From the IMG/VR virus record IMGVR_UViG_2706794669_000004: a DNA stretch of 10,325 bases; one strand, written 5' to 3'. How positions within the stretch are numbered: position 1 is the first letter of the stretch; each line of letters begins with the position of its first letter. The notes under the pieces were generated by a model that saw only the letters and a program-made list of their open reading frames with translations, did not search any database and was not told where the DNA came from. Shown one piece after another: positions 3,656 to 3,776 of the stretch. This DNA is from a virus (Duplodnaviria; Heunggongvirae; Uroviricota; Caudoviricetes). The position numbers were made by a program, and so were the translations under genes.

Positions 3656-3693
3656 ATGCGGCACTCCTGGTTAAATTTCATTTTTCGCGGGTA

Positions 3694-3754
3694 TAAAAAA
3701 ACGATGGGGCGGGCAGTCCGGAAGACGTCAGGTCACAGGGATTTGCCCCGCCCC
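3694..3754 (-). terminator. GC-rich long hairpin plus T-run in the HNH-terS intergenic region: intrinsic terminator and/or cos-site region
   Basis: GGGGCGGGCA (3706-3715) pairs with TGCCCCGCCCC (3744-3754), one bulged C; 28-nt loop contains GACGTC palindrome (3724-3729); on the minus strand the stem is followed by ATCGTTTTTTTAT. In HK97-like phages the cos site lies between the HNH gene and terS. Confidence 0.45.
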
Positions 3755-3776
3755 TCCCTACAAGTGAGAATAATTA

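Follow-up and report, generated by a model that had tools for sequence, protein, structure and literature searches.

An interval between the HNH endonuclease and terS genes of a tailed phage is very probably a cos site of the SfV/SfI/phiP27 type, and its GC-rich hairpin a likely by-product

In phage HK97, the virion DNA ends in 10-nt 3′ overhangs, and the HNH protein gp74 stimulates the cleavage of cos by the large terminase subunit TerL and is needed for efficient cutting (PMC9410871, PMC11331095). The HK97 TerS binds from +15 to +29 (CTAACCCGATTTTTT), on a C/G step and an A/T tract (PMC11331095); bound downstream of the cut, it stalls the translocating TerL, which then cleaves with the help of the HNH protein (PMC11331095, PMC9410871, PMC10359639). 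In the HK97 termination structure, about 25 bp of DNA fill the TerL lumen up to the portal entrance. That gp74 cuts one of the two strands was raised as a possibility and left as a question (PMC11331095). In phages of Gram-positive hosts, N.phiGamma and its homologues, which are HNH nickases encoded next to cos, nick the sequence CG^GT (^ marks the nick), with CA^GT as a star site (PMC3592412). For the Shigella flexneri phage SfI, run-off sequencing of virion DNA set against the prophage revealed a 10-nt gap, 5′-TGCCCGCCCC-3′, that the authors took as the cohesive end; the same paper terms the cos mechanism of SfV "postulated" (PMC3636060). According to the papers on SfIV and SfII, these phages have the SfI/SfV cos in common.

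Here we report the analysis of a 10,325-nt stretch of viral DNA (the window; IMG/VR record IMGVR_UViG_2706794669_000004), centred on the interval 3665-3776. The Pfam matches and the map of open reading frames give the order Q, lysis genes, HNH, cos, terS, terL, portal:

81-1328, minus strand: portal gene.
1431-3164, minus strand: terL, large terminase with ATPase and nuclease (Pfam PF03354 and PF20441).
3161-3655, minus strand, ATG at 3655: terS, P27-family small terminase (Pfam PF05119, E = 3.9e-20), first gene of the virion left end.
3777-4127, minus strand: HNH endonuclease gene (Pfam PF01844, E = 1.6e-16), last late-operon gene before cos.
4170-4646, minus strand: Rz gene.
4631-5128, minus strand: lysozyme gene.
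7758-8165, minus strand: Q antiterminator gene.

The succession HNH-terS-terL is the same in HK97, SfV, SfI and phiP27, and thus the interval has the context of a cos site. The ATG of terS at 3655 is the start of the homologous SfV orf1, and homologues of the window terS carry the NCBI label "phage terminase small subunit P27 family". The window HNH protein, 34% identical to HK97 gp74 and 70% identical to the HNH protein of the Edwardsiella phage EPP-1, is an accessory nuclease of the packaging machine. Elsewhere in the window, four tRNA genes (Gly-TCC, Thr-TGT, Arg-TCT and Met-CAT; 6214-6524, minus strand, with Rfam among the evidence) lie between the Q region and the lysis genes; SfI has tRNA-Asn and tRNA-Thr at the matching place (PMC3636060). 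Four further Rfam matches above the gathering score occupy 7315-7730 on the minus strand, between Q and an ORF6N-domain gene (6714-7475): isrK (7641-7717), the C4 antisense RNA (7532-7615), the c4-a1b1 target (7678-7730) and sRNA-Xcc1 (7315-7398). Directly downstream of Q, this stretch looks like an antisense-controlled antirepressor module of the P1/P7-c4 or Gifsy-isrK type.

Within the interval and along its edges we distinguish the following features:

3745-3758, minus strand: G-rich box, GGGAGGGGCGGGGC, which holds the 5′ arm of a hairpin; a G-rich run stands directly 5′ of AAATC in 234 relatives.
3740-3744, minus strand: AAATC, a motif that does not vary in the family; the predicted bottom-strand nick lies exactly 24 bp downstream of it.
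3716-3739, minus strand: 24-nt spacer, CCTGTGACCTGACGTCTTCCGGAC, ending in AC; the 28-nt hairpin loop consists of this spacer preceded by AATC (3743-3740).
3706-3715, minus strand: cohesive end, cosN-like core, TGCCCGCCCC, a predicted 10-nt 3′ overhang.
3695-3701, minus strand: T7 tract that starts 4 nt past the cohesive end, part of A/T-rich left-end DNA.
3669-3694, minus strand: putative TerS recognition site (cosB-like), ATACCCGCGAAAAATGAAATTTAACC, +12 to +37 from the left end.

The identity of the interval comes from the ends of related phages. On the minus strand, 3715-3706 reads base for base as the cohesive end of SfI, and the GenBank record of SfI has GGACTGCCCGCCCC as its last bases, ending in that same 10-mer, and GTCGTTTTTTTATACCC as its first. 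Between 3722 and 3600 the window matches SfV and SfIV at 100% identity. In a similarity search against phage genomes, several linear phage records started or stopped within 3665-3776. A misc_feature labelled "cos-site" in phiP27 (AJ298298, 21806-21815) gives CGCCCGCCCC at the homologous position, EPP-1, whose ends were set with PhageTerm, terminates in TGCCCGCCTC in the same alignment column, and the right end of HK97 (GACCGCCGCCAAA) falls in this column too. These comparisons show directly that the ten bases at 3706-3715 are a cohesive end. The contigs of HK97/HK022-like isolates stop either after the 10-mer (with GACCGCCGCCAAA; 10-mer CGCCGCCAAA) or after GAC, and both nick positions are thereby marked. 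We infer the 3′ polarity of the overhang from the gap found with SfI and from HK97. By the same analogy, the predicted nicks fall between 3706 and 3705 on the minus strand and between 3715 and 3716 on the plus strand (GGGGCGGGCA^GT; GGGGCGGGCA^GTCC). For annotation, the virion chromosome of this prophage would have its right end at 3706 and its left end at 3705, with 3706-3715 as the 10-nt overhang.

Published end assignments in the SfV/SfI group are not fully uniform. Besides the "postulated" SfV mechanism, the SfV GenBank record (U82619.2) is linearised at GACGTCT^TCCGGAC, that is at 3722/3723 of the window and 17 bp upstream of the end mapped in SfI; the ends of the deposited SfV sequence probably differ from the physical ones.

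Taken as a whole, 3665-3776 is very probably the cos site of a temperate phage of the SfV/SfI/phiP27 type, a group whose packaging module is HK97-like, and the hairpin that it contains a by-product rather than a terminator. A reading of the DNA from its sequence only had offered a terminator, the cos region or both, on the premise that HK97-like phages have the HNH gene at the right end of the genome and terS at the left. The premise is borne out in the HK97 genome, and the comparison with the HK97 cos that this reading had called for places the window 10-mer at the HK97 right end. With the ends of SfI, phiP27, EPP-1 and HK97 all coinciding here, the cos half of the proposal stands. The terminator half is not supported.

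The region could also be a dead remnant, a defective prophage in which a cos-like sequence persists with no current function. Nothing in the window shows inducibility, and the exact HNH-to-lysis arrangement is absent from complete E. coli genomes at > 95% identity across the query. Against such decay, the packaging genes are all intact open reading frames with full-length Pfam matches, the functional phages SfV and SfIV have exactly the same cos core and terS-side DNA (100% identity), and one other IMG/VR contig has an identical HNH gene and cos. We therefore hold a dead remnant to be unlikely.

The architecture of the site emerges from its relatives, which comprise 240 IMG/VR loci retrieved with three HNH queries (the window HNH, HK97 gp74 and the EPP-1 HNH) together with reference phages. 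We matched a pattern made of the G box, AAATC, 24 nt ending in AC, and then YG plus 8 nt. It fits 234 loci and records, corresponding to 144 distinct 87-mers, and the window fits it as well. Every lineage has this layout in common: a G-rich box, AAATC, exactly 24 nt ending in AC, and a C-rich 10-mer that starts with YGCC. The lineages in which a G-rich run precedes AAATC include HK97 and the Klebsiella and Edwardsiella phages. When the distance was left variable, 52 of the 56 distinct HK97-set sequences and all 43 from the EPP-1 set had AAATC 24 nt from AC^YGC; of the four that deviate in the HK97 set, two are truncated contigs, one continues differently downstream and one is a core variant. 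In a search bounded to 15-32 nt, the distance was 24 nt in all sequences of the window-HNH set and in the reference phages. The terminal AC was itself required by the spacing searches, so that its invariance is shown only by the small number of loci that lack such a site.

What is fixed in the spacer is its length; its sequence is only 8-18/24 identical between lineages. The GACGTC palindrome that it contains was considered as a recognition site and rejected: it is replaced in relatives by GCGCGC, CCTGGC, AAAGGC and others, including relatives with the same cohesive end. The G box varies in both sequence and length (GGGGCGGG, GGGGGAGG, GGGGTGGG, G7 to G13), with no compensating change in the cohesive end. 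Among near-identical HK97-like phages, the G run just upstream of ATCAAATC ranges from 7 to 13 G at an unchanged 24-nt distance, a variation that reflects either homopolymer slippage or sequencing error.

Several observations concern the way in which these pieces are combined. The window has a mosaic joint inside cos, at 3706-3736: SfV, SfI and SfIV match its terS side up to about 3706-3722, and phi467 and vB_Eco phages match its HNH/lysis side from about 3736 upward. Among relatives, the same HNH gene and G box are joined to at least four types of cohesive end and TerS side. Near the end of the contig IMGVR_UViG_2595698462_000001, an HK97-type HNH gene, a G box and AAATC are followed by unrelated DNA (AGAGACGTAGTAGTCGGCGTCTCT), and the switch starts exactly after AAATGAC, which is the predicted nick position; this suggests a module exchange at the cut site.

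From the conservation and the spacing, we propose that the G box and AAATC form an upstream cos subsite, in a position like that of cosQ and read by a protein. We read the three elements, the G box with AAATC, the core and the motif downstream of it, as a layout resembling cosQ, cosN and cosB.

The downstream motif follows the type of TerS. It is kept where TerS is 73% identical to that of the window (EPP-1, ATGACCGCGAAAAATGAAATTT) and where it is 48% identical (phiP27, ACACCCGCGAAATTAAAAATTT), and in phi467, whose TerS is 24% identical, unrelated DNA takes its place. Because the motif tracks the TerS type, we place the putative TerS site at about +12 to +37 (3694-3669). The window TerS (Terminase_4) and HK97 gp1 have no BLASTP similarity and belong to different Pfam families, and the window TerS has no PDB match. 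Transfer by homology of the solved HK97 TerS-DNA complex is ruled out by this absence of sequence similarity, and the HK97 model of the TerS site is thus carried over by analogy only. As annotated, the EPP-1 TerS has 201 aa and contains a 37-residue internal duplication relative to that of the window.

The hairpin was the starting point of the sequence-only reading, and its arms, bulge, 28-nt loop, GACGTC and T7 are all present where they had been placed. On the plus strand the arms are GGGGCGGGCA at 3706-3715 and TGCCCCGCCCC at 3744-3754; 8 perfect bp join 3706-3713 with 3747-3754, and 10 bp form once a one-base bulge is allowed. The loop spans 3716-3743, with GACGTC at 3724-3729. A T7 does follow the stem on the coding (minus) strand, at 3701-3695, but not immediately, since 4 nt (ATCG) lie in between. 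The 3′ arm on the coding strand is the cohesive end itself (the SfI 10-mer is the reverse complement of 3706-3715), and the pairing of the other arm extends to 3744, with which AAATC begins.

Taken alone, the hairpin is statistically weak evidence and only marginally unusual. When the 112-nt interval was dinucleotide-shuffled 2000 times, 5.8% of the shuffles contained a perfect inverted repeat with ≥ 8 bp and a loop of ≤ 40 nt, and the 10.3-kb window has 7 independent repeats of that class. The folding energy of the interval is unremarkable against shuffles (z = -1.0 as RNA, -0.34 as DNA), and no Rfam family matches 3665-3776 at the gathering threshold, the matches in the window falling elsewhere. 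Other perfect inverted repeats lie at 19-29/38-48 (11 bp, loop of 8), 6617-6624/6631-6638 (8 bp, loop of 6) and 5183-5190/5195-5202 (8 bp, loop of 4); with their more terminator-like geometry, they are better terminator candidates than the cos hairpin.

Conservation of the pairing is poor. All 8 inner pairs are kept in only 15 of the 144 distinct relatives, and across these relatives 58% of the cells are Watson-Crick at the native pairing vs 33-51% when the partner column is slid. A Watson-Crick helix of 8 bp arises only for GGGGCGGG with CCCGCCCC (SfV and P27 types); the longest helix measures 6 bp with CGCCCGCCAA, 3-5 bp with CGCCGCCTGA and, in the HK97 group, 2-4 bp. Even among relatives with the exact cohesive end and terS side of the window, boxes of the GGGGGAGG type turn up in 5 of 17 distinct sequences (10 of 43 loci) and allow a helix of just 4-5 bp. 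No consistent compensatory substitutions were found in the 144 distinct relatives; double changes were confined to pair 13-53 in the HK97 group, whose neighbouring pairs are broken. Swapping G boxes between lineages moved the predicted duplex energy from -18.9 (native) to -18.5, a difference of 0.4 kcal/mol, and a permutation test gave a slight native advantage that is nominally non-random (5/2000) with relatedness uncorrected. In the RNA folds of most relatives, the G box still pairs with some C-rich stretch, in shifting registers, at -16 to -29 kcal/mol, as expected of any pair of G-rich and C-rich segments.

Relatives thus retain the HNH-terS adjacency, and even the same cohesive end, yet lose the complementarity, which is the outcome that the sequence-only reading had named as contradicting its hairpin. 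Because neither the number of pairs, nor the length of the helices, nor the energies of swapped arms point to selection for pairing, we conclude from these comparisons that the hairpin is most simply seen as a by-product of a conserved G-rich box lying 24 bp from a conserved C-rich cohesive end, apparently unselected as an RNA or DNA structure. A generic, register-independent role of G:C complementarity is possible.

A more specific role would be that of a functional DNA structure, the inverted repeat serving as a cruciform, an extruded hairpin or a symmetric protein site for recognition or cutting by terminase or HNH. One arm is indeed the cut site and the other the conserved box, most lineages have some complementarity between G box and C-rich stretch, and native arm pairs are marginally more stable than permuted ones. 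On the other hand, the HK97 group cuts cos in vitro (PMC9410871) with only 2-4 contiguous Watson-Crick pairs, the non-complementary box GGGGGAGG occurs with the same cohesive end and terS side, compensatory changes are not consistent, native and swapped arms differ by 0.4 kcal/mol, and the repeat is centred on about 3730, away from the midpoint of the staggered nicks (about 3710.5). A functional structure of this kind is quite unlikely.

As for transcription, the coding-strand RNA folds into a GC-rich stem of about -27 kcal/mol with a U7 nearby, and a Q antiterminator gene lies upstream. An intrinsic terminator would have a short loop (about 3-8 nt) and, within 0-2 nt of its stem, a U-tract; the window structure has a 28-nt loop and a gap of 4 nt. 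A scan of 3000-4800 for the terminator consensus returned 0 sites, vs 2.2 in shuffles. A stem with an adjacent U-tract is not kept in relatives either, in which T5-T7 runs stand at 4-7 nt from the core (ATCG-T7, CTCGAA-T5, GTCAAA-T5, CCCCAA-T5). The T7 is better explained as belonging to a conserved A/T-rich stretch that runs into ATACCCGCGAAAAATGAAATTT, within left-end and TerS-site DNA, than as a terminator U-tract. That the hairpin acts on the late mRNA as an intrinsic terminator or attenuator between HNH and terS, read through by Q-modified polymerase, is thus very unlikely, with an empty scan, a long loop, a T-run that is offset (only T5 at 5-7 nt from the stem in relatives) and a stem lost in many relatives with the same terS side. 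The lesson is that a striking GC hairpin beside a T-run should not be called a terminator here.

We return to the cos site and to how it might work. Given the homology with SfI and HK97, TerS and TerL, with the HNH protein, would make two nicks 10 bp apart in replicating concatemers: one on the coding strand after TGCCCGCCCC (3706/3705) and one on the opposite strand at 3715/3716, leaving 10-nt 3′ overhangs. After cutting, the virion chromosome would have terS at its left end and HNH at its right. As the comparative data suggest, TerS would dock on the A/T tract and ACCCGCG, at about +12 to +37, and halt the incoming motor. The G-rich box and AAATC (3758-3740), at their fixed 24 bp upstream of the nick, would be a subsite read by a protein. 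The late transcript would run straight through cos, as in lambda.

The opposite-strand nick reads CA^GT in the window (GGGGCGGGCA^GT) and CG^GT in the majority of its relatives, among them phiP27 and the Klebsiella, phi467-type and HK97 phages. This match with the CG^GT specificity of HNH nickases suggests that the HNH protein may cut the non-coding strand and TerL the other. Because about 25 bp occupy the TerL lumen in the HK97 termination structure, the G box and AAATC, 25-45 bp upstream of the non-coding-strand nick, would lie inside the portal channel at the time of cutting. The two ideas can be joined in a tentative reading, to which we give less than even weight: the G box and AAATC would be an undescribed and required cosQ-like subsite of the HK97-like, HNH-dependent packaging family, and the AC^YG junction a nick made by the HNH protein. 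If so, the portal, TerL or HNH would read the G box and AAATC as a signal for termination or registration while the nick site lies in the nuclease; a division of labour in which HNH nicks the non-coding strand (CG^GT or CA^GT) and TerL the other would explain the origin of the 10-nt 3′ overhang.

The cos biology of the interval is already known and is ordinary rather than new. In the accessible literature, the original HK97, SfV and phiP27 papers apart, we found no description of the fixed-distance G box and AAATC element, literature searches for TCAAATC and for the cos 10-mers brought up nothing relevant, and the fixed-distance G box is the only point that is possibly new. The resulting map of an HK97-type cos (G box and AAATC at 24 bp, AC^YG junction, downstream motif specific to the TerS type) is compact and testable, and it could help to choose mutations for the in vitro packaging system of HK97; its wider value is modest.

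Comparison with the known systems goes from the most distant to the closest. In phage lambda, cosQ is GGGTCCT, which we take to lie 23 bp before the right end, a position checked against the lambda sequence. The lambda right end contains neither a G box-AAATC nor a YGCC core, and the window does not have a cos of the lambda type, the HK97-type family being one of 3′ overhangs. Lambda differs from the window in its 12-nt 5′ overhangs, in having no HNH protein, and in its unrelated sequences and TerS. It is like the window in its tripartite logic, with an upstream termination element, a nick region and a TerS-binding region on the left-end side, cosQ being needed for termination (PMC6739421). 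The likeness is functional and positional only.

HK97 is closer. Like the window, it combines a right-end HNH gene with a left-end terS, and it has a G run and ATCAAATC exactly 24 bp before AC^CGCC, a C-rich 10-nt overhang, and a C/G step with an A/T tract downstream. Unlike the window, its cohesive end is CGCCGCCAAA, its G box, a simple run of G7-G13, is unable to pair with that end (2-4 bp), its TerS is of an unrelated sequence family, its HNH protein is the distant gp74, and the HNH stop codon lies 319 bp from the right end, vs 61 bp in the window.

The Stx2e phage phiP27 has its cos between L34 (HNH) and L35 (TerS, 48% identical), with the G box, AAATC and 24-nt spacing of the window and the downstream motif ACCCGCGAAA in common; it differs in the first base of the 10-mer, C instead of T (CGCCCGCCCC), and in a spacer that is 14/24 identical. 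Finally, the serotype-converting Shigella flexneri phages SfI, SfV, SfII and SfIV have the cohesive end TGCCCGCCCC, the HNH-cos-terS order and the G box, AAATC and 24-nt spacer of the window. The window departs from them in its G box, GGGGCGGGGC instead of GGGGCGGGTC, which gives its hairpin the extra two pairs and the bulge, in its HNH gene, about 80% identical to theirs, and in a lysis side that comes from a different mosaic partner; with SfV and SfIV, it shares every base from the cohesive-end core to terS.
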